IMG/VR virus record: IMGVR_UViG_3300048928_000366
Span: 1 to 56,877 of that record
Strand: one strand, 5' to 3'
DNA from: a virus
DNA length: 56,877 nucleotides
Shown here: positions 25,245 to 45,401 of the stretch, piece after piece
Numbering within the stretch: the stretch's first letter is position 1
Layout of the letters: every line of letters starts with the position of its first letter
Program-made: the position numbers and the translations under genes
The notes under the pieces: model-generated
What the model saw: only the letters and a program-made list of their open reading frames with translations
Database searches by the model: none
Told to the model about the DNA's origin: nothing

Positions 25245-25312
25245 TGTTCACTGTATTTTTAGTCTGTATTCACTGTTTTTACTCTATAAGTATGGCGTAA
25301 TGTCTATTCCTA

Positions 25313-25651
25313 CTATTTGATATATGATGGAGGCTGTATTTTCAAACCGTGATCTTCTGCAAGTTTTTTCCAATTACGAAGTTTCCATTTTGTAAACATT
25401 GGAATGGATTCGGATTCATATAAGCTGTCTGACAATAACACAATGTGAGATCGCAGCATTGCTGTGTCGCGCTTTAAAGAAGCGTTCTCATTCTGTAAAA
25501 GTTGATTGTTGTGCTCACAGTCTACCACTTGAGATTTCAATTCCTGTTTTCTGTGATCCATTACCACGCAGGATGCGGTAGTAAATATTGACCAGCCTAT
25601 TGAGGTAAACATTACGGCAAAGGTGGCTGTCTGAGTTTTTTTCCTTATCAT
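25313..25651 (-). CDS. Membrane-anchored coiled-coil protein
   Basis: N-terminal TM helix then a heptad-like region. The start codon follows the CAGTGAACA element. Confidence 0.5.
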   Translation of the reverse strand: MIRKKTQTATFAVMFTSIGWSIFTTASCVVMDHRKQELKSQVVDCEHNNQLLQNENASLKRDTAMLRSHIVLLSDSLYESESIPMFTKWKLRNWKKLAEDHGLKIQPPSYIK

Positions 25652-25698
25652 TTGTTCACTGTCCGCTACCGGCGGATGCGGTTTATTAAGTATTGTAA

Positions 25699-25971
25699 TT
25701 AATAATAAAGCTCCTTGATGTAAAGAAAATCTAAACGCTCGGCAATGCTTTGGAAGTTCTCTGAATAACAGTATACCGTTTCGATATAGTCACCGTCTAC
25801 TCTTCGCTCAAGCCCTGTTCTGTAGTGGTACAGTTTCTTATATTCCACCAAACGAGTGGAATCATTAACCTGCTCGATGACTCTGTAGTCTCTTTTAACT
25901 TCAGTTATGTAATAACTATAGCAAGTAACTAGGATGTTTGCTATAAGTACGATTATTAAAAAAGTACGCAT
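25699..25971 (-). CDS. Small membrane protein
   Basis: N-terminal TM helix, 90 aa. Confidence 0.5.
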   Translation of the reverse strand: MRTFLIIVLIANILVTCYSYYITEVKRDYRVIEQVNDSTRLVEYKKLYHYRTGLERRVDGDYIETVYCYSENFQSIAERLDFLYIKELYY

Positions 25972-26004
25972 TGATGTTTTGCCAGTAACCGACTGGCGGC
26001 GGTT

Positions 26005-26259
26005 TTAATTTAATTCTGGATAAAATTCAGCTATCAATCCTGTTGGTGCAGTATATTCTGCGATATACTGCATATAATCAACATACTTAGTTCTGGTTAT
26101 TGTCATAATACATCTGAGGTCATCTTCTGTCTTTGCCAGAACGTCAACTCCATAATTCGGGATATTTCTACCTGGTGATTCTTCAAACCATGACTTCACG
26201 GTTGCGAACTTATAGAGTCCGCTTTTCTTCAAAGGCTTATCCCGTTGCATACCATCCAT
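26005..26259 (-). CDS. Hypothetical protein
   Basis: 84-aa ORF in the leftward operon. Confidence 0.45.
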   Translation of the reverse strand: MDGMQRDKPLKKSGLYKFATVKSWFEESPGRNIPNYGVDVLAKTEDDLRCIMTITRTKYVDYMQYIAEYTAPTGLIAEFYPELN

Positions 26260-26390
26260 TCTATTTTACTTTTTATAAATATTATTTTTTCTGAACTTTC
26301 AAAATACCGGAAAAATCCCCGTCTGAACCTTCACACTTAGCAGATACCTTTGATGCGTACAATATTTTTAACTCAAAATCATAGTGAACA

Positions 26391-26774
26391 ATGAGAAAGA
26401 CTAGTCGTCTTATCGCTACGCTATCTGCTGTAGCATTGATCTTGCTTTGTAGTACTGCCTTCGCCAGCCATGTTACTCCACCCGCAAAAAAGATTGTTGG
26501 TAGGTATGTTTTCAAAAGAACGCCACCAGCCGTCGGATCTTTCGTCAGGGTGTGGGGTACTCCTAATTGCTTTGAACAGTCCAGCACCGGAGACAATCCC
26601 GGGAATCCTCTTTGGTGGGTTAATAAGAAGATGAAAGTATTAAGCGTCTACATTAGTTGCGAAGGCGTGGCAAACGGGTCAATGACCATACAAGCAAATA
26701 CAGCAGGCACCATCTACAGCGCGTATAACGGCTATACAACTACATGGCCATCAGACCAGTGGTCAGCATGGTGA
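26391..26774 (+). CDS. Secreted protein (moron, opposite strand to the surrounding operon)
   Basis: Signal peptide MRKTSRLIATLSAVALILLCSTAFA. It has its own TACCTTTG -7 box (26345-26352) and its own terminator. TAGTGAACA abuts the ATG. Confidence 0.6.
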   Translation: MRKTSRLIATLSAVALILLCSTAFASHVTPPAKKIVGRYVFKRTPPAVGSFVRVWGTPNCFEQSSTGDNPGNPLWWVNKKMKVLSVYISCEGVANGSMTIQANTAGTIYSAYNGYTTTWPSDQWSAW

Positions 26775-26808
26775 TATTATCATAATGCCTACAAGCCCTT
26801 TGTTAAGC

Positions 26809-26833
26809 GCCCCGGCTATCCCGGGGCTTTTTT
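26809..26833 (+). terminator. Rho-independent terminator of the secreted-protein moron
   Basis: GCCCCGG-ctatc-CCGGGGC stem followed by T6. Confidence 0.7.
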
Positions 26834-27007
26834 GTTTCCCGATTGTTTTGTTCTGGTTATACATGGTGGCTCTGAATTAGAATAACTTTGGTCATTCAAA
26901 AGATATGTGTCTTGTAGCCTGTCGAATAACACTAAACAATACCTACATATATCCCAGTGTTTGGTTCCAGGGAATTTTTCCCATTCATGTTGCTGTACTG
27001 TCTCCAT
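26816..27007 (-). CDS. Small Cys-containing protein, paralog of 27207-27428
   Basis: Shares HEWE...C.YC...PPCITR with the neighbouring ORF. Confidence 0.45.
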   Translation of the reverse strand: METVQQHEWEKFPGTKHWDICRYCLVLFDRLQDTYLLNDQSYSNSEPPCITRTKQSGNKKAPG

Positions 27008-27010
27008 CTG

Positions 27011-27232
27011 TTAACCCTCCCATGCATTTGTAGGATATTTATCCGGATTCTTTAATATGTGATGAACCTTTTTCACATCTTTCATGTGAAAGCCTTGTGA
27101 CTTGATCAATCCAATGAACTTTCCCTCGCTGTTATATTGCTCCTTCGTAAGCCATAAGTCAGGCAGATCATGAAACTCTATGATAACAGTAGGGATTAAT
27201 TCTCCCTTAGTGTCCGATTTGTACTTGCTCAT
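27011..27232 (-). CDS. Hypothetical protein
   Basis: 73-aa ORF, tightly spaced. Confidence 0.5.
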   Translation of the reverse strand: MSKYKSDTKGELIPTVIIEFHDLPDLWLTKEQYNSEGKFIGLIKSQGFHMKDVKKVHHILKNPDKYPTNAWEG

Positions 27233-27428
27233 CTGTTTGTGTTTTACGGGTGATGCATTTGGGTGGAATGCCTAATAGGTGATTATAATTTTCATTACTG
27301 TAAATCGGCCTGGCATTTGAACACATTTTCTTTGTTGGGCAATACTTACACTGATAGACAACCACATCTCCCTGTGTATACGCATACTCCCACTCATGCT
27401 TTGTTATCTGTCCTTTCTGTGGCATCAT
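27207..27428 (-). CDS. Small Cys-containing protein, paralog of 26816-27007
   Basis: HEWEYAY...CKYC...PPKCITRK. Confidence 0.5.
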   Translation of the reverse strand: MMPQKGQITKHEWEYAYTQGDVVVYQCKYCPTKKMCSNARPIYSNENYNHLLGIPPKCITRKTQTDEQVQIGH

Positions 27429-27672
27429 TCAGAGCTTTTTGTACATCTTCAAATTGCCCGGCATTTATAACCAAGCAAATAACTATATGAGTGTTTTGCA
27501 GTCCAGACATTTGCTTCCGTATCATTCTCCCTGTCTCATCATCAATACCAAATGTTAACAGACTTCCCTGCTTTACTGATTTACATTCAACGAGCGTATT
27601 AGACAACCGGATGTCTTTACCTTCGTCGGCCATAAGGCCCATAGCCTTGAACTTAATCTCGTTTGGCTTCAT
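27394..27672 (-). CDS. Hypothetical protein
   Basis: ATG at 27672 (TAATG overlap with the upstream stop) is preferred over the longer ORF-track start at 27747. Confidence 0.5.
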   Translation of the reverse strand: MKPNEIKFKAMGLMADEGKDIRLSNTLVECKSVKQGSLLTFGIDDETGRMIRKQMSGLQNTHIVICLVINAGQFEDVQKALNDATERTDNKA

Positions 27673-27908
27673 TACTCTTCCTCCTTTTCCGGGATGTACC
27701 CGTTTTGTTTGAGATAATCGTCTATTGAAAACCCGTTCACGTACCATAGTTCAGCGTCTGTACAAAGCTTTATTAGTGCCTCTGCCTGCATGGCTATTAC
27801 CGCTTGATAAACCTCATATAGTTGCTCATCATTCAGCATCTTGTCATCGATGCTGGTGTGAACAGTTAATGTATTGGCTACTTCTTCTATTCTTTCTTCG
27901 TACGTCAT
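27672..27908 (-). CDS. Hypothetical acidic protein
   Basis: ATG at 27908 overlaps the upstream TAA. 78 aa. Confidence 0.5.
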   Translation of the reverse strand: MTYEERIEEVANTLTVHTSIDDKMLNDEQLYEVYQAVIAMQAEALIKLCTDAELWYVNGFSIDDYLKQNGYIPEKEEE

Positions 27909-28198
27909 TATTCGCCGGTTTTTGATGGTGATGGAATAAGGCCGCGTTTCATCAGATACTCGTTCTTTCCTTCCTCTGTCCATGCATAATTGTCCATCCA
28001 TGCGATCAACTCTTTAACCGTCTCCGCGACCATTGCGCGGGCTTTACTTATGTTTCTATCAACTGTAATATTCCATGCATCACGACATGAATTACTTACA
28101 TCTAACTTTGCTAAAGCCCAATTCGGAAACTCAATATTGGCCAGTATCTCAGCTATCCGCCGTACTTCCTGATCATGCGCGTCGTTTTGTGTGCTCAT
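27908..28198 (-). CDS. Hypothetical protein
   Basis: 96-aa ORF. Its ATG overlaps the TGA of the 28195-28332 ORF. Confidence 0.5.
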   Translation of the reverse strand: MSTQNDAHDQEVRRIAEILANIEFPNWALAKLDVSNSCRDAWNITVDRNISKARAMVAETVKELIAWMDNYAWTEEGKNEYLMKRGLIPSPSKTGE

Positions 28199-28332
28199 GG
28201 TGTTTGATTGTTTTTAAATTTAACGATGATGCCTACGCATGGTACCGGAAAAATGTACAGCCACTTCTTTTTCTTGTCCCAAAAGAAGCCGATCCATAAG
28301 TCATACCATGCGAAGAGAAGGGATATCTTCAT
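28195..28332 (-). CDS. Small membrane protein (WYDLWIGFFWD...LYIFPVP type), below the ORF-track cutoff
   Basis: My own translation gives MKISLLFAWYDLWIGFFWDKKKKWLYIFPVPCVGIIVKFKNNQTP. ATGA coupling to the next gene. Confidence 0.55.
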   Translation of the reverse strand: MKISLLFAWYDLWIGFFWDKKKKWLYIFPVPCVGIIVKFKNNQTP

Positions 28333-28363
28333 GCTATCGCGTATCCCCGCCGGGCTGGTTTAG

Positions 28364-28594
28364 CTAATTTCTATTTTTCAACTCCGATTCAAGGTCCTTA
28401 ATCCAGTCTGTAATGAGCTGTGTGTTGCCATCACCTGATAATTGATCCGCCTCTGTGCCTGTCTTTGCAAATTGCCCTCCCTCTATTGCGTCTGGCACAC
28501 TTTGATTCTTTTCACAATAGATGAAATTATGTTCTGATTCCTGTGCATCTTTAAGTTTATTGATAAGACGATTGAGTTGTATTACGTAATCCAT
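28364..28594 (-). CDS. Hypothetical protein
   Basis: 76-aa ORF. Confidence 0.5.
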   Translation of the reverse strand: MDYVIQLNRLINKLKDAQESEHNFIYCEKNQSVPDAIEGGQFAKTGTEADQLSGDGNTQLITDWIKDLESELKNRN

Positions 28595-28596
28595 CG

Positions 28597-28935
28597 TTAT
28601 GGCTTGAAGCTTAAAAGGCTGTCAGGAGTCGCGCACCAGTGGGTGATATGCTTTGTGTTGAATGACCCGTCAAAGTATATTAAATCGTAGTGTAATTCAA
28701 CCTTGACGCATCGGATTATCACCGGTTGGTTAAGTTCCGGTAGGCGTTCCGTTACAGGTATCCACTTTGGTTGCGCCCATTCGGCCCCGGCGATGAACCC
28801 ATCACGGAAATTAGATTCACAAAATCCCTTACGCATCTCCCAATCAGGCCCTTTAATAGCAGACGATTCTGGATAATGATGTTCCGAATGTCTTAGACAC
28901 GCTGCCTCGGATGCTTCCTGTATTGTCTGGTTCAT
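28597..28935 (-). CDS. DUF551-like phage protein
   Basis: KWIPVTERLPELNQPVII resembles the DUF551 core, recognised by eye only. Confidence 0.4.
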   Translation of the reverse strand: MNQTIQEASEAACLRHSEHHYPESSAIKGPDWEMRKGFCESNFRDGFIAGAEWAQPKWIPVTERLPELNQPVIIRCVKVELHYDLIYFDGSFNTKHITHWCATPDSLLSFKP

Positions 28936-29108
28936 GAGAAAAGTTCTTCTTTTGATACAACAATCTTGTTTTTGTCCTGATACTTCTTAAGACGTTCCAT
29001 GACTTTAAAACTTTCCTTTTCAGTCATGAAGCCGGACAAATAAAGCATTTGTCTTGCCTTGAATGACTGAATGAGTATTTGCTTATTTTCGTCGTTCTTC
29101 TTTGCCAT
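28932..29108 (-). CDS. Small hypothetical protein (58 aa, below the ORF-track cutoff)
   Basis: My own translation gives MAKKNDENKQILIQSF...KEELFS. ATGA overlap downstream. The start is 1 nt after the upstream stop. Confidence 0.5.
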   Translation of the reverse strand: MAKKNDENKQILIQSFKARQMLYLSGFMTEKESFKVMERLKKYQDKNKIVVSKEELFS

Positions 29109-29109
29109 C

Positions 29110-29373
29110 TTACTCGCTCTCCGGGTTTACACCTCCGGCGGTGGTTAGTGATATTATGAATTGCTCAATGTCGTCCTGTAAACATTCAGGCAGAGAGACG
29201 CTGTTAGCGCGATTAAGCAATTTTTTTGCCCTTTCAAGGGATGTTTCCAGCTCCTTTATGTACGGCTGGTTCTCCCTTTTCTGGGTCTCCAGCGCCTGCG
29301 TGAGGGCTGTAACCTGGAGTTTCAGTTCCGCGTTTTCGGCCTGGAGCTGTGCGTTTATGCAGTTATTGCACAT
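29110..29373 (-). CDS. Coiled-coil protein
   Basis: 87 aa with heptad-like Leu/Glu/Lys composition. Confidence 0.5.
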   Translation of the reverse strand: MCNNCINAQLQAENAELKLQVTALTQALETQKRENQPYIKELETSLERAKKLLNRANSVSLPECLQDDIEQFIISLTTAGGVNPESE

Positions 29374-29385
29374 GATTTGCTGATT

Positions 29386-29694
29386 TTAAAATGGTAAACA
29401 GGAGTGATGTTTGTGTTTCGTTTTCCACCAGAGGATTCTCCTTATTTTACCGCAATCTGAGCAACGATCAAAGAGATGGCTGCGAATCATTTTCCAGTAT
29501 AAAGAGACATAGAACCAAATCCATTTTCTGAATGTCTTCAGTGTAAACTGCCACTTGTTGAATTCTTCATCTACTGTCTGGTAATACTCATCCCAATACT
29601 CGTGAGCGTGGCATCTGGTACAGTAATGATAACCTCCGTCCGTATGTTCTGAGATCTTATGTCCAAGTAAAAAGCACTTACAGTTTATTTTCAT
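29386..29694 (-). CDS. Zinc-finger protein
   Basis: Has CTRCH and CSDCG motifs. The CAGTGAACA element abuts the ATG. Confidence 0.5.
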   Translation of the reverse strand: MKINCKCFLLGHKISEHTDGGYHYCTRCHAHEYWDEYYQTVDEEFNKWQFTLKTFRKWIWFYVSLYWKMIRSHLFDRCSDCGKIRRILWWKTKHKHHSCLPF

Positions 29695-29739
29695 TGTTCA
29701 CTGATTTGTTGAAAGAAGGGGAGGCTATGCTCCCGCTTC

Positions 29740-31781: not shown

Positions 31782-32064
31782 TGTATGACTTTATTATGTT
31801 TTCAAAAACGTACAAGCAAAGTTCCTGGCCTATGAATATTTTACATGTCCCCAAGTAGTATAAGTGTGCAAGAGGTGTTATAATCTCCTGGCCGGTCTTG
31901 TAGCATTCAAAATGACGGGTCATTAGTTCGTTGTCGGTATCATGAATCGCCCAGAGGAATGAATTGCCATCCACTGTATCAACACGAATAATCAACGCAT
32001 GCTTTGGAAGATCAATCGAAAATTTATCCTTAAATGGGATAGGATACTTATAAATTGTTTTCAT
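31768..32064 (-). CDS. Hypothetical protein
   Basis: 98-aa ORF overlapping both neighbours. Confidence 0.5.
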   Translation of the reverse strand: MKTIYKYPIPFKDKFSIDLPKHALIIRVDTVDGNSFLWAIHDTDNELMTRHFECYKTGQEIITPLAHLYYLGTCKIFIGQELCLYVFENIIKSYNEVR

Positions 32065-32414
32065 TGTTCCTTTTTAAGTCGTGATAGTTTAAATCCTTTC
32101 CTTACTGCCCAGTCATGATGTCTTTCCACATAACCATTGCACGGATTGCAGCAGCAAATCATGTTGTCTGTGTTAAGCAAATCTTCGATTGTTGCCTTAC
32201 CTTTAAGGTGATGCATGCCTTGAGACATGCCTGTACACTCAGGAGATCGGATCTTACACGGTACGCCCTGCCAGAGTGGTCGAGTCTTCGCGGAATACTC
32301 CCGGTTTGCCCGCTGCCGCTTCTTCGAGTACTGCGCGATCTTGTACCGCTTCTTCTGCTTGGGCGGCTTGCTTTCCAGTTTAAGTTTCTTCCGGTATTGC
32401 AGGTAGTCGCTCAT
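32061..32414 (-). CDS. NinG/Rap-like or HNH-type nuclease
   Basis: Basic N-terminus, then C..C...HHLKG...CCCNPCN...HH pattern. Confidence 0.4.
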   Translation of the reverse strand: MSDYLQYRKKLKLESKPPKQKKRYKIAQYSKKRQRANREYSAKTRPLWQGVPCKIRSPECTGMSQGMHHLKGKATIEDLLNTDNMICCCNPCNGYVERHHDWAVRKGFKLSRLKKEQ

Positions 32415-32417
32415 TGT

Positions 32418-32741
32418 TCACCGTGTTTTGCCAAATAAGAATTCGTGATCTGTTCCTTTCTGTTGATGGTAGGCCAACCGTCTGTCAAAATCATTCTGAC
32501 CGCTAAATTCCAGCGCCATTTCTACCAGCTTGCTGATCCAATACTCAACCTTTTTGTTTCGTGCCCTAAAGCACTCGCACCGGTCGGTGTCAGTCACGGT
32601 GAATCGGATACCAGTTTCAGGCCCTATACACTGTCCTCCGAACAAGTCTCTATCAACCATAAATTGACAGTTACAGCAGGTGTCGAGTTGGTCAATCTGC
32701 TCCCAGGCATCCTCATAACTGTAGGCTAATCGGGGCTTCAT
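32418..32741 (-). CDS. Hypothetical Cys-rich protein
   Basis: 107-aa ORF. The CAGTGAACA element abuts the ATG. Confidence 0.5.
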   Translation of the reverse strand: MKPRLAYSYEDAWEQIDQLDTCCNCQFMVDRDLFGGQCIGPETGIRFTVTDTDRCECFRARNKKVEYWISKLVEMALEFSGQNDFDRRLAYHQQKGTDHEFLFGKTR

Positions 32742-32781
32742 TGTTCACTGTTTACGAGCTTATCCAGCTCTTTGATCACTG

Positions 32782-33198
32782 TTATGTTTCCTTTATCGTT
32801 ATCCCGTGCACCTTCTTCATTAGCCGGCGCTTCTTGATGTATTCCTGTGTCCTGTGCCCTTTGCAGTCCTCAACAATCGTTTCCCCAGTTTCGACGACGA
32901 TGTAAACGAAGTCGGCGATATACTTGAGTGAATGGGTACCTCCTGTATTCAGCTCGTATTCAACCTGCAGGCGAAGCATTCCTATGAACCCTTTTTTCAG
33001 GAGAAACAGTAACTTGCTGTATCGCTTTGCCTCTCGTTCACTGTCGAACGTGATCCCGTTAACCACTGTCTTCTTATTGCCATACTTTGATCGTCCGTTC
33101 TTCTTTACCGGCTTCTCTGCCTCCTCAAACACCTTCTGGTTTAAGTGAGCTACCTTGCTACGCTTCAGCTCCGACAGGGTCATCGTTGACTTTTTCAT
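32782..33198 (-). CDS. DUF1064-family protein (putative Holliday-junction resolvase-like nuclease)
   Basis: KYGNKKTVVNGITFDSEREAKRY...YIADFVY...ED.KG is the DUF1064 signature as I recall it. Confidence 0.6.
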   Translation of the reverse strand: MKKSTMTLSELKRSKVAHLNQKVFEEAEKPVKKNGRSKYGNKKTVVNGITFDSEREAKRYSKLLFLLKKGFIGMLRLQVEYELNTGGTHSLKYIADFVYIVVETGETIVEDCKGHRTQEYIKKRRLMKKVHGITIKET

Positions 33199-33931: not shown

Positions 33932-33940
33932 TTGTTTTTG

Positions 33941-36703: not shown

Positions 36704-36713
36704 GTTCGTTAAT

Positions 36714-36992
36714 TTAAATTCCTGCCTGATATTGAATCAATGAATACTGCTTTATCACCTGACCCGTTCTTGTCTTGATCCATTTATACTGGATCACATG
36801 TCCCATGTGTTTGAGCTCAAACAAACGTGCTCCAAGGCGAGTGCATCGGAAGAGGTTGTAAGCCTGTAGCTGTGTAATGGTCTTACCTTTTTCTAACCAG
36901 GCGAGTATTTTATCTCGCTGGCTTTTAAGTGCCGGTTTGTTGGCTGGGTGAATTCTGTTTTTACTCATCGGACGGATATTTGGATTAATCAA
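36714..36992 (-). CDS. Winged-helix DNA-binding protein
   Basis: KILAWLEKGKTITQLQAYNLFRCTRLGARLFELK is HTH-like. Confidence 0.5.
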   Translation of the reverse strand: MINPNIRPMSKNRIHPANKPALKSQRDKILAWLEKGKTITQLQAYNLFRCTRLGARLFELKHMGHVIQYKWIKTRTGQVIKQYSLIQYQAGI

Positions 36993-37236
36993 TAATGTTC
37001 TTGTTCTTCTGCTTCCCTTTGGCGCCCTTTCGCCAGCGTTTCTCCAACTTACGGCGTGGATGGCTTTTAAACCGCTGGTTGAATATCTCTACCAGAGCTT
37101 CGCCAAACTTCTTGGTAGCGGGGTAGAAGATCTCGTATATCGCTTGGCCGTGCCGGTGCACAATGTTTAGCACCTTGATTTGTGTAAGTACCCCTTTGTG
37201 GTTGTAGGAGACTGTTTGGCCGATTAAATCTGACAT
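36985..37236 (-). CDS. Hypothetical basic protein
   Basis: 83 aa. CAGTGAACG abuts the ATG. Confidence 0.5.
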   Translation of the reverse strand: MSDLIGQTVSYNHKGVLTQIKVLNIVHRHGQAIYEIFYPATKKFGEALVEIFNQRFKSHPRRKLEKRWRKGAKGKQKNKNIID

Positions 37237-37249
37237 CGTTCACTGAGTT

Positions 37250-37462
37250 TTAATAATAGAGGCGGTAAAGCTTATTGTACCATTTTATCATCTGGCTGAG
37301 CGATAGGAAGTGACAACACATATAGTCTAATGCCCCATGCGTTGTTTTCTTTTCGGCGATTAAATCCAAATGGGTTGCATCTCGTATGCGCCAAATGCCT
37401 TTGGTGGAATCCCAAGTGAAGAAGAAGCGGGATCTTACCTTTTTAAGGAGCTTCGTTTTCAT
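37250..37462 (-). CDS. Hypothetical protein
   Basis: 70 aa. CAGTGAACA abuts the ATG. Confidence 0.5.
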   Translation of the reverse strand: MKTKLLKKVRSRFFFTWDSTKGIWRIRDATHLDLIAEKKTTHGALDYMCCHFLSLSQMIKWYNKLYRLYY

Positions 37463-37489
37463 TGTTCACTGAGTTTATGGTGTAAGGGA

Positions 37490-37903
37490 TTAGATACCTA
37501 ATAGCTTGCAGATAAGGCGCAGGTCGTTTATGCAGCGGCATGTACCACTGAATGATTTATCGGCGTGCGTGTGAACTGTTACATTGAACTTCTGGTTTTG
37601 ATTGAAATGCAACGTATAATACAGTCCATTTTTAATCAACTCGTACACATTGTTGTTGTACCCATTTTTACGAAGATATTTCCATCCTTCAGCCTCTATC
37701 TGCTCGGCGGTGAGGTACGGGACACGAACTGTTATATGGGGCTGCATCATTCTTTGCAGGATATTCTGTATAACTATCCCGTTGGCCGGCATTATCCGCG
37801 TAGCCCAGCCGGTATCTTCACCATCTATCCACCTTTTGTGTTCAAACACCAGTCCTGGTCTAATATCCTCCGGCGAGGGCGTGTAATACTTCTGTTCTTC
37901 CAT
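37490..37903 (-). CDS. Hypothetical protein
   Basis: 137 aa. TAGTGAACA abuts the ATG. Confidence 0.5.
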   Translation of the reverse strand: MEEQKYYTPSPEDIRPGLVFEHKRWIDGEDTGWATRIMPANGIVIQNILQRMMQPHITVRVPYLTAEQIEAEGWKYLRKNGYNNNVYELIKNGLYYTLHFNQNQKFNVTVHTHADKSFSGTCRCINDLRLICKLLGI

Positions 37904-37946
37904 TGTTCACTAATTAATGACTAATTAATCTCTAATTGAATTAGAG

Positions 37947-38318
37947 TTAGATTTCGATTTCGATGGGGTAGGTGCCGATGTAGTGATCTTTAGTGCATAC
38001 CTCTTTTTTTAGAGCCTCTTCTTCTGACTCGTAAGGATTTGGCGAGACGGATATTCGTCCGTACAAGCTCCACATATTCACCCACACCGTTTTCTTCTTC
38101 GGAGCCATGAAGAGGTCAATTATGCTATTCGAATTGTCAGATTGTCTACCGTCTTCTTTGCAGTATAGGTATCTTCCTTCTTCAGTGACACCTATCAATG
38201 GATAATGAAAGCTTGATACGCCAGTAAACCTTGTCAGTTGTGACACTTTTTTACCCAATCTTGTTACCACCTGCTCTCCCGCCAATGCTTTCTGCAGGTC
38301 AAAAGGTTTATAGTTCAT
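37947..38318 (-). CDS. Hypothetical protein
   Basis: 123-aa ORF. An 8-1-8 palindrome (37930-37946) lies just after the stop. Confidence 0.5.
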   Translation of the reverse strand: MNYKPFDLQKALAGEQVVTRLGKKVSQLTRFTGVSSFHYPLIGVTEEGRYLYCKEDGRQSDNSNSIIDLFMAPKKKTVWVNMWSLYGRISVSPNPYESEEEALKKEVCTKDHYIGTYPIEIEI

Positions 38319-38593
38319 ACTGTAACTTTTTTAGGTGATTGATTAAAGAGTGATTCGGGAATGGACATCGGAGGCTGGATCTCGCGGAAGTTAGCCTTGT
38401 TGAAAGCTGATGGCGCAGAATATCCAGGATATATTTCAGGGAACTCTGCCAAAAAAATGTGAGTTGAATTGTAGTTTCCGGCATGGGTATATATACCGCC
38501 TTTAACTGGTCCATTGAATTGCTCACCTGAATGCTTTTCTGTCCAAATGCCACTTGTAATACACTCCAAAAGGCTGCCTTCTTGCATGCGCAA
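38315..38593 (-). CDS. Hypothetical protein
   Basis: 92 aa with ATGA overlap to the downstream gene. Chosen over the alternative frame 38308-38553. Confidence 0.45.
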   Translation of the reverse strand: MRMQEGSLLECITSGIWTEKHSGEQFNGPVKGGIYTHAGNYNSTHIFLAEFPEIYPGYSAPSAFNKANFREIQPPMSIPESLFNQSPKKVTV

Positions 38594-38597
38594 TAAT

Positions 38598-39002
38598 TTA
38601 TTTGTTAAAAGTTGCCATTTCCTGTTTCCGTAGACTTATCAAAGTCCGTAACAGCTCGATTTGGTATTTACAATCCTTGTCCTGCTGTTCAATCCAGTTA
38701 ACCAGGTAGTTCAGATCATGGCAATCAGCTTTGATCAACTCATTCATTACAGAAGCTGGCAAGGTAGACCGTTTGGCATCTTTCAGTTGAGTGAGCACGC
38801 TGTTTTTTATTGCCTTATCCCTCCAGTACTTTGCATCTGCCAGCATCTTTCCGGTTGTCGCCATGATTGAGGCGATATGTGTTGACCTGGATACCAGCTG
38901 TTCAGGATCTTCTGTCACTATCTTCATTTTGATAATAGGCTCAAACTCTGTGGCCATCTTCAGGAGATCTTCCGGGCTGATTACGTTCTTTGATAAGTCC
39001 AT
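38598..39002 (-). CDS. Hypothetical protein
   Basis: 134-aa helical ORF. Confidence 0.5.
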   Translation of the reverse strand: MDLSKNVISPEDLLKMATEFEPIIKMKIVTEDPEQLVSRSTHIASIMATTGKMLADAKYWRDKAIKNSVLTQLKDAKRSTLPASVMNELIKADCHDLNYLVNWIEQQDKDCKYQIELLRTLISLRKQEMATFNK

Positions 39003-39004
39003 TG

Positions 39005-39646
39005 TTACTTAATTTGAATGCTTTTCTTTTCCTCAATTGAGGCTCCTGGTATCTTTACGCCAGCCTTCAATTGTTCTTTTATCTTTTCCCTGCTTGCTGA
39101 TGCGGTTACGTTAAAAACAGCCAACACTTCATCGGTTATACCTGCTTCCGCGGCCTCGTCGGACATTTCCGGGTTTACCTGAAAGTCAACTTTCACGTAT
39201 CGGAGGATATTGTCTGCAAAGTCGTCTTTCAGTTCAACGGGAGAGGTCTTGCGATAAGTTATTTTCAGCGTTTCGCTTTCCACCTTGTCGTAACCAAATT
39301 GCTGCATGCCCTCATCAATGAGTTTCCGGAATAGTTCTGATTTCTTGTCCGCTTTCGACTTTAGTGATTGCAGACGCTTGATTTCTGCGGCGATGACATC
39401 AGACTCAGCATCCATCTTTTTGATAACGTAAGCATAGCTAATAGCTTTCTCTTTAAATTCCTTTTCATTGAGTCTGAGGGCAGATAACATCTGTTCAGAG
39501 ATCTCTCCGTCATTTTCTTCAATCTCAGCCAAGAGGGACATATGATCCTGACGAATATTAAAAATTGACTTCTTTGGTTTTGGTGCAGGAGTGGGGTTAT
39601 CCATTTGTTCCCGTTCCTGTTCGAATAGTTCTTTACTGGAAGTCAT
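39005..39646 (-). CDS. Siphovirus Gp157-like protein
   Basis: Acidic coiled-coil protein directly downstream of the annealase gene. Its pattern resembles Gp157 family members as I recall them. Confidence 0.45.
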   Translation of the reverse strand: MTSSKELFEQEREQMDNPTPAPKPKKSIFNIRQDHMSLLAEIEENDGEISEQMLSALRLNEKEFKEKAISYAYVIKKMDAESDVIAAEIKRLQSLKSKADKKSELFRKLIDEGMQQFGYDKVESETLKITYRKTSPVELKDDFADNILRYVKVDFQVNPEMSDEAAEAGITDEVLAVFNVTASASREKIKEQLKAGVKIPGASIEEKKSIQIK

Positions 39647-39650
39647 GACA

Positions 39651-40466
39651 TTATTTTTGTGCCGGAGCGGCAGGTGTAAGTTCCTTTCCTTTAGCTGCGA
39701 TAGCTTTATATACAGAGTTGTCCTTATTGATAAGCTCTTTATACATCTCCTTAATCGTTTTTAGGTCTGACAACTCAGTAGCTTTGTTGATGAGGCTAAG
39801 GCATTCCTTTTTCATTATTTCGTCTGGTGAGTCATCAGATTTTGTTTCTGCTTGTGATTTCTGTTGGCCGTGTGGTTGACCACATTCATTCCAGAATGGT
39901 TCGTCTGTCTTTTTTCTCCACTTCACTTCCTTCTTCTTGACCCCGTTTCTTTCTATCTCTACGAATACCTTAATTGCATACTGTTTTACCCATTCTTTAC
40001 TGAACTGAGGCTGCCATAACTCAGTGGCTACCCCTAAGTCTTTACAACACCTTACAATACAATCAGACTTTGCAGATTCGGAGACACTAGCCCATGATTG
40101 CATTTTATTAGACACATGATACTCAGCCTCCCCAACTGCTTCAGATACATAACACCCACGTATCAGAAGTATGCCATCATAGTAGCATTTATTTGCCCCC
40201 GAATCAACCTTGACATCCTTCTTTACTAATGCCCACTGACCAATTCCAAAAGTTTTATTTAGCTTCATCCGTACGAATGCCTGAGGAAGATATATAAGAC
40301 CGTCAGGCCTTATTTCTACCTGTAGTGGGTCTATTGATTCTTCAAGCAGTTTTTGTTCTTCAGGTGTTACTTTTAGGAGTGATGCGTTTGGATAGAAAGA
40401 TGGTTGCTCGACCATTTCCGGAACCATAACCGCATTTTCCATCGCTGATGTTATTTCTGTTCCCAT
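39651..40466 (-). CDS. Rad52/Mgm101-like single-strand annealing protein
   Basis: YLPQAFVRMKLNKTFGIGQWAL and AKSDCIVRCCKDLGVATELW resemble Rad52-family motifs. Confidence 0.5.
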   Translation of the reverse strand: MGTEITSAMENAVMVPEMVEQPSFYPNASLLKVTPEEQKLLEESIDPLQVEIRPDGLIYLPQAFVRMKLNKTFGIGQWALVKKDVKVDSGANKCYYDGILLIRGCYVSEAVGEAEYHVSNKMQSWASVSESAKSDCIVRCCKDLGVATELWQPQFSKEWVKQYAIKVFVEIERNGVKKKEVKWRKKTDEPFWNECGQPHGQQKSQAETKSDDSPDEIMKKECLSLINKATELSDLKTIKEMYKELINKDNSVYKAIAAKGKELTPAAPAQK

Positions 40467-40492
40467 GTGATTATCAATTTCTATTAAATGAA

Positions 40493-41320
40493 TTATTCAG
40501 GTTTAACTCCAGTGATTTCAGTGAATATTTCCCAGGTAAAGTTTGGCAGCTCATAGAATGCTTTGCGGTTGCTTTCGGACCAATTATGCCAAGCATTCTG
40601 GAATGCTTCTTTAAAAGGAATGTCCTTTAGGTATCCTTCGCAGGTGGTGTGTGATGGATATTTTGCCTTCTCTTCTTCCGTCATGTAAGAGGAAGGTACC
40701 CATTGTTTCGTGTCCACTTGGCAGAGTAAAGAGAACGCCTTGCTGTCTTTGAACTGTTGTTCAGTCCAGTTGGAAGGCTGATTAAAAATGGGAAAGGGGG
40801 CAGATCCGGTGCAGAAAGCGCCGGTGTTCCTGTCGCCGGTGTTACTGTAGCCGGTGTTCCTGTAGCCGGTGTTCCAGGAGCCGGTGTTACTGTCGCCGGT
40901 GTTCCTGTCGCCGGTGTTCCTGTCGCCGGTGTTCCTGGAGCCGGTGTTCCTGTAGCCGGTGTTCCAGGAGCCGGTGTTACTGTCGCCGGTGTTCCTGTCG
41001 CCGGTGTTCCTGTCGCCGGTGTTCCTGTCGCCGGTGTTCCTGGAGCCGGTGTTCCTGTCGCCGGTGTTCGCTAACCCAGTATTGCCTTCTCCTGTATTAG
41101 CAATGCCAGCAGCAAGTAATTTTTCAGGGGTAAACATTTTCAGTATATCGTCCGGACATGCGCCATTCTCAGAACACCAGTCTAAATTGTCTTTTGCAAC
41201 TTGTAGCAGATCTTCTTCTGTTTGAGCGTTTCTGACCCGTCGTAGTTGTTCGTGGCAAGGGTTCTTAGTAGCAAGAATCGCCAATGCCGCCTCTTTAATT
41301 TTGTTGAAGTTATTTTCCAT
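40493..41320 (-). CDS. Pentapeptide-repeat protein (about 20 NTGxx units)
   Basis: NTGDRNTGDRNTGDSNTGSWNTGYRNTGSR is repeated. There are globular N- and C-terminal domains. Confidence 0.7.
   Translation of the reverse strand: MENNFNKIKEAALAILATKNPCHEQLRRVRNAQTEEDLLQVAKDNLDWCSENGACPDDILKMFTPEKLLAAGIANTGEGNTGLANTGDRNTGSRNTGDRNTGDRNTGDRNTGDSNTGSWNTGYRNTGSRNTGDRNTGDRNTGDSNTGSWNTGYRNTGYSNTGDRNTGAFCTGSAPFPIFNQPSNWTEQQFKDSKAFSLLCQVDTKQWVPSSYMTEEEKAKYPSHTTCEGYLKDIPFKEAFQNAWHNWSESNRKAFYELPNFTWEIFTEITGVKPE
40805..41100. repeat. 15-nt tandem coding repeat with a 90-nt higher-order duplication
   Basis: Units of gccggtgttcctgtc type were read directly. Unit pattern DR-DR-DS-SW-YR-SR is followed by DR-DR-DS-SW-YR-YS. 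Confidence 0.85.
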
Positions 41321-41360
41321 ACCTTTGTTTTGAAGTTGTTTTATACAATTTTTAATGGAT

Positions 41361-41389
41361 GGCTCTGTGTTGCTGCACAGGGCCTTTTT
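41361..41389 (+). terminator. Plus-strand-oriented intrinsic-terminator-like hairpin inside the leftward operon
   Basis: GGCTCTGTG-ttgctg-CACAGGGCC (9 bp, one G-T pair) followed by T5 on the plus strand only. Confidence 0.4.
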
Positions 41390-41406
41390 AATGTCTTGAA
41401 CGTGGA

Positions 41407-41841
41407 TTAATATTTGTCTCCGCCTACAGACATTTTCATTTCAACACTTACTTTGTACGTGTTCTGCATGCAGGCAACCGCTCCGTCTACCATAGCTTTA
41501 GCAAATGATGTAGCTCCTTTCTTAGAGGATATTTCCTTTATCACTGCCGCACGGATAATCTCAGTGTTTTCTGCTGCCCATTTCATCATCTCCTGCTTGG
41601 CAGTTTCCTGGATGATGTTTCTAAATACGATGTCCATAAAATTGTGAGTGTTGTCCGAGCTGTATTGACCTTTGTAGCCTTTATCGTTCACTTTGTCATT
41701 GAGACAATGTGCAACGATGGATGCAACTACTTTTTCAGGATCGCCTAAAGCGCGTGTAAGGGCTGATTTAATTTCAGTTTCAACTATCGGCTTCAGTAGG
41801 TCTGGATTCAGGTTGATAGATCCTAGTGATGTATTCGACAT
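41407..41841 (-). CDS. Hypothetical protein
   Basis: 144-aa ORF. The CAGTGAACA element lies 30 nt upstream of the ATG. Confidence 0.55.
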   Translation of the reverse strand: MSNTSLGSINLNPDLLKPIVETEIKSALTRALGDPEKVVASIVAHCLNDKVNDKGYKGQYSSDNTHNFMDIVFRNIIQETAKQEMMKWAAENTEIIRAAVIKEISSKKGATSFAKAMVDGAVACMQNTYKVSVEMKMSVGGDKY

Positions 41842-42169
41842 TTGTAAGATGTTTATGATGGTTTGATAAATTGTTCACTGTTCTTTAAAAGCCAGGCGGC
41901 GGAAGCTTAACACTAACACAACTATGAATAATGTACCTATGCCGCCTGGTTTGCTTTCCTAAAAAGTCCTGTCTCGATCATGTCCACGACACGGTTGTAG
42001 CCTCATGATCGAATAATTGACTACTTCATAACAAAGAGCTTTGGTTAAGATGCAACCGCTTTTCTGCTCAGGATACCGGCTTGTTATCCCCTGCATCTTT
42101 AAATCCCGGATGGTCTGATGACCGTTTTTTCAATAACAACTCGTGAACAGGGCAGGGCTCGAACCTGCA

Positions 42170-42400
42170 TTAAGAACCTACGGCCGGGACACCAGCGCAC
42201 GTCTTATTACCACTTCGACATTGACCACAGAGCAATCTTTTAGGAGCAAAAATCTTTTTAGACTTAGCAGGGCCGAACTTCCACGTCCCCGGCTTCGAAC
42301 AATTCGCACACGTAGTATAGTACGTTGTGTGACCTGTTTTGCGCATGGATATTCTGCGCTTTCTTGCCGCTCGTTCCCGTTTTCCTAAATTCTTTGCCAT
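42170..42400 (-). CDS. Small highly basic zinc-ribbon protein
   Basis: MAKNLGKRERAARKRR..., with CANC...CGQC. Starts 1 nt after the stop of 42402-42605. Confidence 0.4.
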   Translation of the reverse strand: MAKNLGKRERAARKRRISMRKTGHTTYYTTCANCSKPGTWKFGPAKSKKIFAPKRLLCGQCRSGNKTCAGVPAVGS

Positions 42401-42401
42401 G

Positions 42402-42605
42402 TTATCTGTTTACTTTAATGATAGCGTTTACCATTTTCGCCACCTGTCCATTTGCCAGTTTACGTCTGGCCTTCGTCTCCTTCGTCGGAGCATTCCCGGT
42501 GTTCGGTCCGGCACGGCGTTCAGACTCGCCAGTCAAAGAGTTTAAAAGTGCCGGTCTTTCCCGGCTATCAGATGCTTTCGTTTCTTTCCATGAAGTCCAC
42601 AACAT
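42402..42605 (-). CDS. Small charged hypothetical protein
   Basis: 67 aa, coupled to the downstream basic ORF. Coding status uncertain. Confidence 0.3.
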   Translation of the reverse strand: MLWTSWKETKASDSRERPALLNSLTGESERRAGPNTGNAPTKETKARRKLANGQVAKMVNAIIKVNR

Positions 42606-43282
42606 TTTCTGTTGTCACCACGGGCTTACCATTATCCCGAAAAGAAATGCTGTTTAATACCAAGCGTCATGTCGCCCTACTCACATCGTTCTGTCTGTCT
42701 AAGTGGGATGTGGAGAGAGGGGAATCGAACCCCGGCTACCCGTCGATAGCTCTGTCCTAAACATCCCTCCAGATTGCCGGCAGGCCGTCCGGCGGTCTAT
42801 TTATTTTTTCACGAGTAAATCTTCATTCTTACAATTTGGTTTCGATCTTGCTCAGGCCTGTTGTTCACTGTTACATATATAAAACCAGCAGTGATGCTGT
42901 CCTCCTCTTTTTAAGTACCAGCTATAGAGATAGCCGGTTTCCCTTTAAAATTCCACGTTATGAAAAAAGGTTGCTCTCTCCCAACAGAGGATTTCGGTAT
43001 TAACATCTACGCGACGTTGGTTCCTCGTGGGGCAACCATCCCTATTTTCATGTTTGGTTTCTAACGAGAGCAATAAAGCAGGGGAGAGGGAAGATATGGC
43101 TATGAAAAAAGGCATACCCCCTTCCCGCAATGTTTTGCGGTACTGAGGTGGATGGGTTTCTCGCCTAAAACCCTTTCCCGCAATATTTTTGTCCAGTATG
43201 TAAAAGAACTTTCTTTGTTGTGGCAGGAGGTGGATACCTCCCGCGTCCGATCGTCCTATTAACCTATATCTATTGTAGCGTC
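42606..43282 (-). ncRNA. Candidate large structured non-coding RNA (or ori-like structured DNA)
   Basis: 677 nt with no convincing ORF in an otherwise tightly packed operon. Multiple hairpins, a long-range 8-bp helix and direct repeats. One stem has a mismatch on the plus strand that becomes a G-U pair on the minus strand. Confidence 0.3.
42711..42771 (-). ncRNA. Non-canonical tRNA-like element (T-arm plus acceptor-like helix, 61 nt)
   Basis: The minus strand reads TGGAGGG...CGGGGTTCGATTCCCCT-CTCTCCA. It has the T-loop consensus GTTCGAUU and 7-bp acceptor-like pairing, but too few nt for D and anticodon arms. Confidence 0.25.
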
Positions 43283-45354: not shown

Positions 45355-45401
45355 TGTTGGAAATTCCAACAAAACAAGTGTTTGTGTTGGAATTTCTAAC
45401 A
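45355..45401. promoter_or_regulatory. Two palindromic operators of the genetic switch
   Basis: TGTTGGAAATTCCAACA (45355-45371, perfect 8-1-8) and TGTTGGAATTTCTAACA (45385-45401), 30 bp apart. A leftward TACATTTG -7 box (complement of 45347-45354) abuts the first. Confidence 0.6.

Follow-up and report, generated by a model that had tools for sequence, protein, structure and literature searches.

The tag (C/T)AGTGAACA, a short sequence that directly adjoins the start codons of some early and accessory genes of a temperate Chitinophaga phage, probably serves these genes as a shared tag for translation control, the host being one that makes no use of Shine-Dalgarno sequences. Its carriers are this phage and at least eight related Chitinophaga phages and prophages (nine genomes), one of which is a prophage in C. 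pinensis DSM 2588. The phage DNA that we analysed, hereafter referred to as the window, is 56,877 nt long; its host, Chitinophaga, is a soil bacterium. Exact phasing to the start codons, co-orientation with the genes, restriction to one class of genes, conservation across nine genomes and a location within a 5'UTR are all observed. An mRNA element of the translation initiation region (an enhancer, an operator or a processing site) is the class of explanation that fits best. Our own tentative reading, to which we assign a probability of about 45%, is that of an mRNA-level start-associated sequence that would act on initiation, as an operator or determinant common to the tagged genes, and in second place as a recombination linker. 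As part of this reading, the motif may be viewed as a functional analogue of the Start-Associated Sequences (SAS) of Cluster K mycobacteriophages, minus their Shine-Dalgarno core.

Distribution of the motif in the window

All copies described in the original prediction were recovered where it had placed them (Table 1), and the counts bear out their enrichment. GTGAACAATG occurs seven times versus 0.17 expected, and none of 100 shuffles contained seven copies (maximum two). At nine gene starts, CAGTGAACA is present with no more than one mismatch, 0-1 nt from the ATG, versus 0.06 expected. When nt -9 to -1 of the 99 called starts are compared with CAGTGAACA, the mismatch distance is bimodal: five starts have no mismatch (0.02 expected), four have one (0.04 expected), none of the 99 has two, and the remaining starts are background.

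Table 1. Motif copies and associated features of the window
Position	Strand	Sequence	Context
25245..25253	-	CAGTGAACA	Abuts ATG 25244 of excisionase-like gene 24972-25244 (phrog_1840 excisionase, E=1.3e-7; HTH_17)
25267..25275	-	CAGTGAATA	Half copy, 22 nt upstream of full copy 25245..25253
25653..25661	-	CAGTGAACA	One A, then ATG 25651 of gene 25313-25651; GC hairpin CCGCCGGTAGCGG directly upstream
26345..26352	+	TACCTTTG	-7 promoter box, canonical for Bacteroidota, 39 nt before ATG 26391 of the moron
26382..26390	+	TAGTGAACA	Abuts ATG 26391 of opposite-strand moron (127 aa, signal peptide)
26809-26827			Terminator-like hairpin
29695..29703	-	CAGTGAACA	Abuts ATG 29694 of gene 29386-29694
32415..32423	-	CGGTGAACA	Abuts ATG 32414 of 117-aa gene 32061-32414; TGA within the motif serves gene 32418-32741 as stop codon
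32739..32785	-	AACAGTGATCAAAGAGCTGGATAAGCTCGTAAACAGTGAACAATG	Intergenic block of 45-47 nt ending at ATG 32741: half copy 32773-32781, 5-bp hairpin, full motif 32742-32750, ATG
37237..37245	-	CAGTGAACG	Abuts ATG 37236 of 83-aa basic-C-tail gene 36985-37236
37463..37471	-	CAGTGAACA	Abuts ATG 37462 of gene 37250-37462
37904..37912	-	TAGTGAACA	Abuts ATG 37903 of gene 37490-37903
39651..40466	-		Mgm101/Rad52-like single-strand annealing protein; adjoins Gam-like gene 39005-39646
41872..41880	-	AGAACAGTGAACAATT	Copy B, 30 nt upstream of ATG 41841
42862..42870	-	CAGTGAACA	Copy A, ORF-poor region, after hairpin and GTTTTATATATGTAA
45347..45354	-	TACATTTG	-7 box of the early leftward promoter; heads ~20-kb minus-strand operon with motif-led cistrons
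45355..45401		TGTTGGAAATTCCAACA, TGTTGGAATTTCTAACA	Palindromic operators between CI-like gene 45437-45823 and early promoter

The copies all lie within 25.2-42.9 kb, each co-oriented with the local gene, and the phage genes that carry one make up only about 10% of the total. Of 45 early minus-strand genes, 27 follow a gap of 3 nt or more, and the motif precedes eight of these 27; it precedes none of the 17 that overlap or abut their neighbor. The moron is the sole carrier among 21 gap-preceded plus-strand genes, and its own TAnnTTTG promoter 39 nt upstream of the ATG places this copy within a 5'UTR. No copy was found at the late or structural gene starts of the window, and the one-mismatch copies inside genes at 33035 and 33643 are background-like.

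Copies A and B stand away from start codons, and each is conserved yet decaying and follows a terminator-like hairpin. Copy B, preceded by a conserved long hairpin with a T-run, is intact in two relatives (L133, L136) and has decayed to CAGTGTACA in L142; copy A is intact in L136 and L142 and has decayed to CAGTTGAACA in L133. This decay and the terminator-like hairpins had no place in the original prediction. As two conserved non-start copies, A and B count against the reading as a start tag.

Conservation among related phages

Across eight of the genomes (167 kb), GTGAAC[AG] occurs 100 times. In 47 of these cases it adjoins the start of an ORF that is 40 aa or longer, GTG starts included, with a spacing of 0 nt in 39 cases, 1 nt in six and 2 nt in two; the other 53 are near chance level (about 41 expected). 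The proposal that the motif follows start codons rather than strand or operon is supported. The motif-led genes of the relatives are mutually unrelated and non-structural. Searching related phages, as had been suggested, thus recovered the motif in eight relatives, and the proposal that it is specific to a phage lineage holds: it precedes unrelated genes in nine related Chitinophaga phages and is absent from late genes and distant orthologues.

The 83-aa gene is motif-led in all eight relatives whose locus sequence spans it, and AGTGAAC plus ATG is invariant in seven of seven aligned genomes; with a scrambled flank upstream and a protein identity of only 46-79%, purifying selection appears to act on the motif. 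The block at 32739..32785 retains 98-100% identity in nine phages despite differing genes on both sides. Gene 32418-32741 is motif-led in the window, whereas its orthologues in L011 and L133 overlap the upstream genes and have no motif; the motif belongs to the junction rather than to the gene. In these same two relatives, the motif before the 117-aa gene falls inside the preceding ORF, at its 3' end (...S-E-Q-stop, with an ATGA overlap). Hence, the claim that an intergenic gap precedes every motif-led gene holds for the window and fails in L011 and L133.

In more distant relatives from the same host genus, the orthologues carry neither the motif nor any other start-associated k-mer, which is why we view the motif as an add-on of one phage lineage; such a distribution is what would be expected of a phage-specified regulon tag. 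Matches to a 14-mer in IMG/VR are single, chance-like copies, and the few host genes flanking the prophages are without the motif.

Mosaic junctions

Homology breakpoints between the relatives concentrate on the motif, and entire genes have been inserted, deleted or replaced from one copy to the next, so that motif sites are also places of gene exchange between phages. This hot spot had not been part of the original prediction. Of 126 blastn HSP ends, 17 fall on motif sites (about two expected), corresponding to 1.5 per motif site versus 0.6-0.8 per other gene start. L001 lacks window positions 37933-37244 (two motif-led genes), and both breakpoints are at motif copies. In L001, a different gene takes the place of gene 32418-32741; L136 and L142 lack this gene, and their 45-nt block joins the 117-aa gene directly. 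Gene 41407-41841 is missing from L133 and L142, the loss starting at copy B. The half copy at 25267..25275 looks like a recombination scar, because it aligns with the full motif of L133, L135 and L139. The Mgm101/Rad52-like protein could plausibly carry out the recombination at the repeated 12-mer, and the phages encode Mgm101/Rad52-like or ERF annealases. In our reading, the repeated 12-mer, which includes the start codon, would secondarily provide a portable homology patch for the in-register swap, insertion or deletion of genes by Rad52-like recombinases.

These same data could be taken to mean that the 12-mer CAGTGAACAATG is primarily a homology patch of the Susskind-Botstein type, kept by crossovers at start codons and devoid of any role in expression. 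We consider this doubtful. A pure linker escapes selection once the event has occurred, yet orthologous copies stay intact while their flanks and proteins (46-79%) diverge, and it is the non-start copies that decay. Moreover, the motif is retained within the 3' end of an upstream ORF and is also present in the 5'UTR of the opposite-strand moron, while other gene junctions are mosaic too without carrying it. A length of 12 bp is also short for efficient annealase-driven exchange.

Start context and proposed mode of action

As originally predicted, the motif is not Shine-Dalgarno-like: CAGTGAACA contains no GGAG, GAGG or AGGA, and a Shine-Dalgarno site was rejected for want of a purine-rich GGAGG-like core that could pair with CCUCC of the 16S rRNA. 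A Bacteroidota sigma-A promoter was rejected as well, since no TAnnTTTG -7 box is found at the motif copies; such boxes are present at PL, int, the moron and elsewhere. The same verdict applies to a CI operator, given that the operators of the early promoter are unrelated palindromes, and to a generic A-rich start context. The CI-PL region contains no motif copy.

Bacteroidia ribosomes are described as Shine-Dalgarno-blind in PMC6847099, and the initiation context given by Baez et al. (2019, PMC6847099) consists of an A at -3 and an A-rich tract at about -10 to -15, without a Shine-Dalgarno sequence. With this Kozak-like context the motif shares the A at -3, the A-rich tract upstream and the lack of a Shine-Dalgarno sequence; however, the context is weak and degenerate, whereas the motif forms a discrete 7-9-mer; it has U at -6 and G at both -5 and -7, positions at which the context favors A. 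Since these nucleotides depart from the positive determinants (A at -6), a simple enhancer is disfavored. The non-motif genes are A-rich at -14 to -10 only, in keeping with the rules of PMC6847099, and five of 90 have ACA at -3 to -1. That the motif merely reflects the ordinary translation-start context of the host, or chance, is effectively refuted: the A at -3 and the upstream A-rich tract would fit, but the seven copies, the bimodal mismatch distance, the rarity of ACA at other genes and the lack of the motif in late genes, related-phage orthologues and the few prophage-flanking host genes do not. Predicted accessibility does not differ between motif-led and other starts.

We infer that the motif most likely acts at the RNA level and that a trans-acting partner exists. 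The motif is a discrete, lineage-specific cis element, placed 0-2 nt from the start codon in some of the non-structural cistrons (early and accessory). It takes up nt -9 to -1, with the generic A-rich tract (-14 to -10) on one side and the AUG on the other; the 30S subunit has to thread this stretch during Shine-Dalgarno-independent initiation in Bacteroidia. Because the motif occupies this stretch, one sequence-specific partner could set or shut all tagged cistrons together. A phage-encoded protein would be the most economical partner, a host factor or an RNA being less likely; the logic would be RegA-like and the anatomy SAS-like. Among about 40 early proteins compared with Pfam and PHROGs, no RegA-like, KH, S1 or other RNA-binding domain was found, and Pfam Translat_reg (RegA family) matched none of these early-region proteins. 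The best partner candidate is the 83-aa basic-tailed protein, whose structure model (pLDDT 54) is unusable. The retention of the motif inside the 3' end of an upstream ORF in L011 and L133 and the decay of the non-start copies count in favor of an mRNA-level function; recombination within the ATG-containing 12-mer could also yield the exact fusion to the ATG, and this counts against it.

The arrangement of the copies might instead reflect a DNA-level site resembling the L5 stoperators, at which a phage DNA-binding protein blocks or modulates RNA polymerase along the early operon. The motif, a 9-mer, is asymmetric, shares the orientation of the local gene in every case and, in the window, is confined to intergenic junctions; the pairs of half copy and copy are 22 and 31 bp apart (about two and three helical turns, the same face of the helix), two copies directly follow terminator-like hairpins away from starts, and the phage encodes several small HTH proteins, including HTH_39 (36714-36968) and xis. 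We nevertheless judge such a site unlikely, as a roadblock offers no rationale for the 0-nt phasing of 39 of 47 copies to the start codon, the early-promoter operators are unrelated palindromes with no motif in the CI-PL region, late genes are free of the motif, unlike the situation with stoperators, and the motif is found on the moron, whose expression from the prophage is expected.

Quite improbable, in our view, is a role in RNA processing, in which an endoribonuclease would cut in or next to GUGAACA and split the 20-kb early transcript into (nearly) leaderless cistron mRNAs, with the upstream hairpins protecting the new 3' ends, as at the RNase III sites of T7 or with RegB of T4. The motif does end in ACA immediately 5' of the AUG, a GC-rich hairpin lies 5-15 nt upstream of about 40% of the copies, window copies occur only after gaps, and the non-start copies come after terminator-like hairpins. 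Such hairpins are, however, frequent in motif-less gaps too (e.g., upstream of ATG 25971), no nuclease candidate was found among the roughly 40 early proteins scanned with Pfam and PHROGs, and the moron transcript is monocistronic already. Furthermore, leaderless mRNAs are uncommon in the single Bacteroidia species studied (PMC6847099).

Comparison with known systems

Like the motif, the Cluster A stoperators (L5 gp71) are asymmetric, about 13 bp or less in length, present in many copies and situated in short intergenic spaces in the orientation of transcription. They match the operator of the early promoter and occupy both genome arms, whereas the motif does neither, and they are not phased to start codons, as the motif is. 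Membership in the L5 type was rejected because the operators at 45355-45401 are unrelated and late genes carry no copies. The operators of T4 RegA, too, lie across or next to the AUG in many early cistrons and follow the logic of a post-transcriptional regulon, but they are degenerate and AU-rich, while the motif is sharply defined, and no RegA-family protein was found among the early-region proteins scanned.

The linkers of mosaic phages (lambdoid boundary sequences, T4-type PeSL) are, like the motif, short conserved sequences between non-homologous genes that bound insertions, deletions and replacements; the motif is indeed a conserved short sequence at non-homologous junctions in related phages. 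Boundary sequences are usually locus-specific, however, whereas the motif is one 12-mer reused at about ten starts per genome. A T4-type PeSL cassette, which combines an early promoter with a stem-loop, was rejected, since the motif copies have no promoter and only some have hairpins.

The closest described analogue is the SAS/ESAS system of the Cluster K mycobacteriophages (Pope et al. 2011, PMC3203893), the function of which was still untested in 2025 (PMC12699233). Both SAS and the motif are short, asymmetric, near-invariant repeats with roughly 10-20 copies per genome. The copies lie just before start codons, in most cases ATG, point the same way with respect to their genes and, in genomes of the temperate siphovirus type, keep to the non-structural half; both repeats are kept across a phage cluster before unrelated gene families and are rare elsewhere. 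The SAS sequence GGGATAGGAGCCC is unrelated to CAGTGAACA: it contains a Shine-Dalgarno core (AGGAG) at 3-7 nt from the start, whereas the motif lacks this core, lies at 0 nt and functions, if our reading holds, in an SD-blind Bacteroidota host. Because CAGTGAACA is without the core of GGGATAGGAGCCC, we regard the motif as an analogue of SAS and not as a member. A subset of SAS copies is preceded by the ESAS, a conserved 17-bp inverted repeat; upstream of about 40% of the motif copies lie GC-rich hairpins whose stems differ in sequence. The coincidence with mosaic junctions is documented here for the motif.

Organization of the phage genome and of its early region

The window represents a temperate phage (see the table), whose leftward early operon encodes a DnaB helicase, a replication initiator, a DUF1064 protein, a Mu Gam-like protein and a Mgm101/Rad52-like annealase, while terminase and structural genes occupy the rest. 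Megablast of the window against INPHARED gave no nucleotide match, and the closest cultured phages as judged by the large terminase infect Bacteroides, Flavobacterium and Cellulophaga and share only 23-26% identity with it. Promoters of the Bacteroidota type (TAnnTTTG) precede int, the early operon (45354), the moron (a gene on the opposite strand) and a few other genes. The two palindromes located between the CI-like gene and the early operon are likely the immunity operators.

Coordinates of the phage features and of the loci compared (L-handles denote related phage or prophage loci)
Feature	Position	Strand	Remarks
Integrase	23783-24988	+	
Excisionase-like HTH protein	24972-25244	-	
Moron unit	26345-26827	+	TAnnTTTG promoter, ORF, strong GC hairpin + T-run terminator; antisense within early operon
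Leftward early operon		-	~20 kb, 45 genes; divergent from CI-like gene
Palindromes TGTTGGAAATTCCAACA and TGTTGGAATTTCTAACA	45355-45401		17 bp each, 30 bp apart; between CI-like gene and early -7 box (45347-45354)
CI-like repressor	45437-45823	+	
Intergenic block AACAGTGATCAAAGAGCTGGATAAGCTCGTAAACAGTGAACAATG	32739-32785	-	45-47 nt; half copy, 5-bp hairpin, full copy, ATG
Same block in relatives	L001:5109-5153; L133:9378-9427; L135:7435-7481; L136:9957-10004; L139:~8165-8208; L141:~523-566; L142:15263-15307		
Motif-bearing clade			L001 (IMG/VR); L011, L133, L139, L141 (Logan assemblies); L135 (GCA_024708845.1); L142 (JGI); L136/L012
L136/L012	CP001699.1, ~4.81-4.83 Mb		Prophage of Chitinophaga pinensis DSM 2588; beside its integrase and host nuo genes

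Two genes of the early region deserve a brief comment. Gene 40493-41320 gives multiple offset blastn HSPs to L136 at 40819-41092, a pattern that indicates internal tandem repeats; its L136 homologue matches DUF7666 and pentapeptide repeats. The HTH_39 winged-helix gene (ATG 36968) possesses a conserved start context of its own, TCCGTCCG followed by ATGAAAA (36969-36976), which is found at the same position in the six family members compared (window, L001, L011, L133, L135, L136); this context is specific to the gene and differs from the motif.

A nine-nucleotide motif abuts the start codons of one class of genes

On re-inspection of the window, all the motif positions reported in the original prediction proved correct. 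The 9-mer CAGTGAACA is present in exactly seven copies, confined to the minus strand and to the interval 25.2-42.9 kb, and the set grows to 11 when one-mismatch variants are added. The 10-mer GTGAACAATG, which combines the motif core with the start codon, likewise occurs seven times, compared with 0.17 expected from 100 dinucleotide-preserving shuffles, none of which reached this number. The proposed concentration at gene starts was borne out when nucleotides -9 to -1 of 99 genes (called simply as longest ORFs) were scored against CAGTGAACA with 0-2 nt of slack: nine starts had zero or one mismatch (0.06 expected), none had two, and the others lay at background. Given this sharply bimodal distribution, the element is either near-perfect or missing at a given start.

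In the early operon, 27 genes stand behind a gap of 3 nt or more, and 8 of these are motif-led; the 17 that overlap or abut their neighbor all lack the motif, as do the late genes of the window. The products are mainly small proteins without assigned function, together with the excisionase. The ninth start copy is on the plus strand, directly before the ATG of the moron, whose 127-aa product has a signal or lipoprotein-like N-terminus (MRKTSRLIATLSAVALILLCSTAFA). Since the moron has its own -7 box, 39 nt upstream of the ATG, and a strong terminator 3' of the gene, its motif copy is part of the 5'UTR of a separately transcribed, monocistronic mRNA. The sole motif-like sequence near any late gene start is a one-mismatch copy, CAGTGAAAA, which occupies 17765-17773 (+) between two genes and lies 9 nt ahead of ATG 17783; chance probably accounts for it.

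Bacteroidia ribosomes ignore Shine-Dalgarno sequences, and an A-rich upstream context is typical of their genes (PMC6847099). Genes of the window without the motif show only an A-rich tract at -14 to -10, and none of the window genes has a Shine-Dalgarno sequence. The motif itself is not a Shine-Dalgarno site, as it lacks a GGAGG-like core, and it is not a generic start context, since ACA occupies positions -3 to -1 in only 5 of the 90 other genes. Its copies lack a TAnnTTTG box, also at the distance that a leaderless promoter would require, and coding starts have no conserved -10 downstream of the GAAC that could serve as an ECF-type -35; promoter function was therefore rejected. An immunity operator is equally rejected, because the palindromes at the early promoter coincide with no motif copy, and the motif matches no known RNA family or tRNA. 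Peptides that would start from the GTG within the motif are 3-58 aa long and unconserved, and a plus-strand antisense sRNA at the orphan copies was dismissed for want of a conserved promoter and of conservation in the antisense flank. Predicted accessibility of motif-led starts does not differ from that of other starts. The motif layout, AACA-GTG-AACA-ATG, resembles a tandem of two start contexts.

The motif is a trait of one phage lineage

Relatives were recovered through protein-anchored searches, and a clade of eight of them carries the element. From the hosts of these relatives, the host of the window phage is very probably a Chitinophaga. Across eight clade genomes (167 kb, excluding L142), GTGAAC[AG] occurs 100 times (about 41 expected); 47 of these copies adjoin an ORF start (ORFs of 40 aa or more), at a distance of 0 nt (n=39), 1 nt (n=6) or 2 nt (n=2), and two of these starts are GTG. 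At L139:14709-14718 the full motif abuts the GTG start of an RNA-ligase gene (CAGTGAACA directly followed by GTG), while at L136:11350-11360 (a YopX gene) and L136:15574 (minus; a signal-peptide moron) AACAGTG itself supplies the GTG start.

In distant relatives, the orthologous starts carry neither the motif nor any alternative start-associated k-mer. What these phages have in common with the motif-bearing clade is the helicase (at 67-68% identity), the 117-aa gene (32061-32414), the 83-aa gene (36985-37236), the DUF1064 protein and even, as L140 (Chitinophaga sp. YR573) shows, the genus of the host. It follows that the element arose within a single phage lineage and is not something that the host ribosome requires. 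A 14-mer scan of IMG/VR yielded single, chance-like copies among the matches listed, and genome-contig searches with the helicase or the 45-nt block pattern gave no match.

Start copies persist while non-start copies decay in some relatives

Several observations speak for selection on the copies that abut a start. At the 83-aa gene, AGTGAAC plus ATG is invariant in all seven aligned genomes, although the 35 nt upstream are mostly scrambled and the proteins are only 46-79% identical. The motif of the 117-aa gene remains intact in L011 and L133, where it is embedded in the final codons of the preceding ORF (...SEQ*, ATGA overlap). Conversely, window gene 32418-32741, which is gap-preceded, has the motif, whereas its L011 and L133 orthologues overlap their upstream genes and retain only GAACA or TAACA; the presence of the motif at a given gene thus depends on gene position.

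Two copies stand apart from any start codon: copy A (42862-42870) and copy B (41872-41880). Each is situated 3' of a terminator-like hairpin and T-run in an ORF-poor region, and they are conserved in some relatives and decayed in others (CAGTTGAACA in L133, CAGTGTACA in L142). Copy B might supply an ATT start, which in the window would share its frame with ATG 41841; this was rejected, as the corresponding frame in L133 meets a stop after four codons. The ORF-poor stretch of the early operon (41880-43300, minus) is partly conserved (e.g., 42454-42538 is ~91-92% identical in L133, L136 and L142). T-arm fragments resembling those of tRNAs occur in it at ~42150-42195, a fragment that recurs in L139, and at ~42705-42745. 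ARAGORN found no tRNA in it and Rfam only a 15-nt partial match to a tmRNA T-arm; non-coding RNAs may reside there, or att remnants derived from tRNAs. The fragment at ~42150 ends in TGTTCAC, complementary to the motif, but a 7-mer match of this kind is expected by chance and a tRNA link was discarded.

Coincidence of the motif with mosaic junctions

The window and its relatives are homologous only in patches, and the ends of the HSPs concentrate on the motif, a coincidence that adds to the original prediction. Seventeen of 126 HSP ends fall within 5 nt of the 11 motif sites (~2 expected), corresponding to 1.5 per motif site versus 0.6-0.8 per other gene start. L001 lacks window segment 37933-37244 with its two motif-led genes, and both breakpoints are at motif copies. 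In L001 an unrelated gene takes the place of gene 32418-32741, which is missing in L136 and L142, where the upstream block adjoins the 117-aa gene; L133 and L142 are without gene 41407-41841, from copy B onward. The half copy at 25267 aligns with full motifs of L133, L135 and L139 and looks like a recombination scar. Clade phages encode Mgm101/Rad52-like or ERF annealases.

One conserved junction is the 45-nt intergenic block (32739-32785), 98-100% identical in nine phages, whatever genes flank it (DUF1064, ParB-like or methylase genes upstream, various genes downstream). It may have a regulatory role of its own, as RNA or as DNA, for instance a nut-like one; it could encode a 13-aa peptide (VIKELDKLVNSEQ*), and its segment GCTCGTAAACA agrees at 9 of 11 positions with the E. 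coli rrn boxA, a weak likeness noticed post hoc. Further short islands of 86-100% identity to relatives, located at gene junctions and with diverged or unrelated flanks (27396-27425, 27668-27722, 26979-27009, 32058-32096, 36936-36981, 38259-38391) indicate that junction-centered conservation is general in the clade and not confined to the motif.

In its behavior the motif resembles the linkers that the modular theory of phage evolution postulates. That it is purely a recombination linker is nevertheless unlikely, because start copies stay intact while non-start copies decay; for the same reason we regard the recombination established at the motif as its consequence or a selected side benefit, and not as its reason for existence.

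A proposed start-associated element at the mRNA level

We infer, with a probability of roughly 0.45, that the motif is a start-associated element acting at the level of the mRNA. Three properties are as expected of a determinant read during initiation: the motif is phased precisely to the start, it persists in coding sequence and 5'UTR alike, and it is confined to one gene class. This fits the original notion of a translation-start element; cleavage or other processing of the RNA at the motif, also proposed there, we consider very unlikely. A factor bound at -9 to -1 would be ideally positioned either to block the 30S subunit or to bring it in. The U at -6 and the G residues at -5 and -7 do not match known positive determinants, which favors an operator with a specific partner over a simple enhancer, and the lineage specificity favors a phage-encoded partner.

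Pfam and PHROGs scans of the early-region proteins revealed no such trans-acting partner, and a PDB profile search produced only spurious matches to designed TIM barrels. The 83-aa protein, with its basic tail (AlphaFold model, pLDDT 54), is always motif-led, which would fit autoregulation. Three small proteins (27207-27428, 73 aa, with CxxC; 29110-29373, 87 aa, a coiled coil; 37490-37903, 137 aa) were found only in motif-bearing loci, the comparison loci being partial, and are candidates for the partner.

More tentatively, the motif may be a lineage-private initiation code in a host blind to Shine-Dalgarno sequences: a 9-10-nt tag fused to AUG, read by a dedicated phage factor or by some part of the ribosome outside the anti-Shine-Dalgarno sequence, that would switch early and accessory cistrons post-transcriptionally. 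As the tag includes the start codon, it would double as an in-register docking site for new genes.

Comparison with known systems and significance

Overall, the predicted observation is confirmed and considerably extended, and its interpretation is partly supported. T4 RegA operators follow a comparable logic, but the scans found no RegA homologue. A DNA-level site akin to the stoperators of phage L5 is quite unlikely, as the motif lacks two of their defining features.

The selection and tuning of start codons by Bacteroidia ribosomes, which do without Shine-Dalgarno pairing, are understood only in part, and a discrete, transplantable 9-mer that abuts AUG in one gene class would be a clean handle on such initiation control. 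The motif also offers a concrete case of a reused linker for in-register exchange of phage genes, an old prediction of the modular theory. With a tag-bearing prophage in the type strain C. pinensis DSM 2588, these questions are open to experiment.

The nearest described system is the Start-Associated Sequence (SAS) of Cluster K mycobacteriophages (PMC3203893), which matches the present element in anatomy, in orientation, in being restricted to one gene class and in its conservation throughout a cluster; its function, a question since 2011, is still without test in later work (PMC12699233). While SAS carries a Shine-Dalgarno core and looks like an extended ribosome-binding site, the present element lacks that core and differs in sequence; it is an analogue of SAS in a different phylum and not a member by sequence. 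Literature searches gave no prior description of such an element in Bacteroidota phages; it is also, as far as we can find, the first SAS-like element outside the actinobacteriophages. An SAS-like element without a Shine-Dalgarno core implies that the phenomenon is not merely an extended ribosome-binding site.
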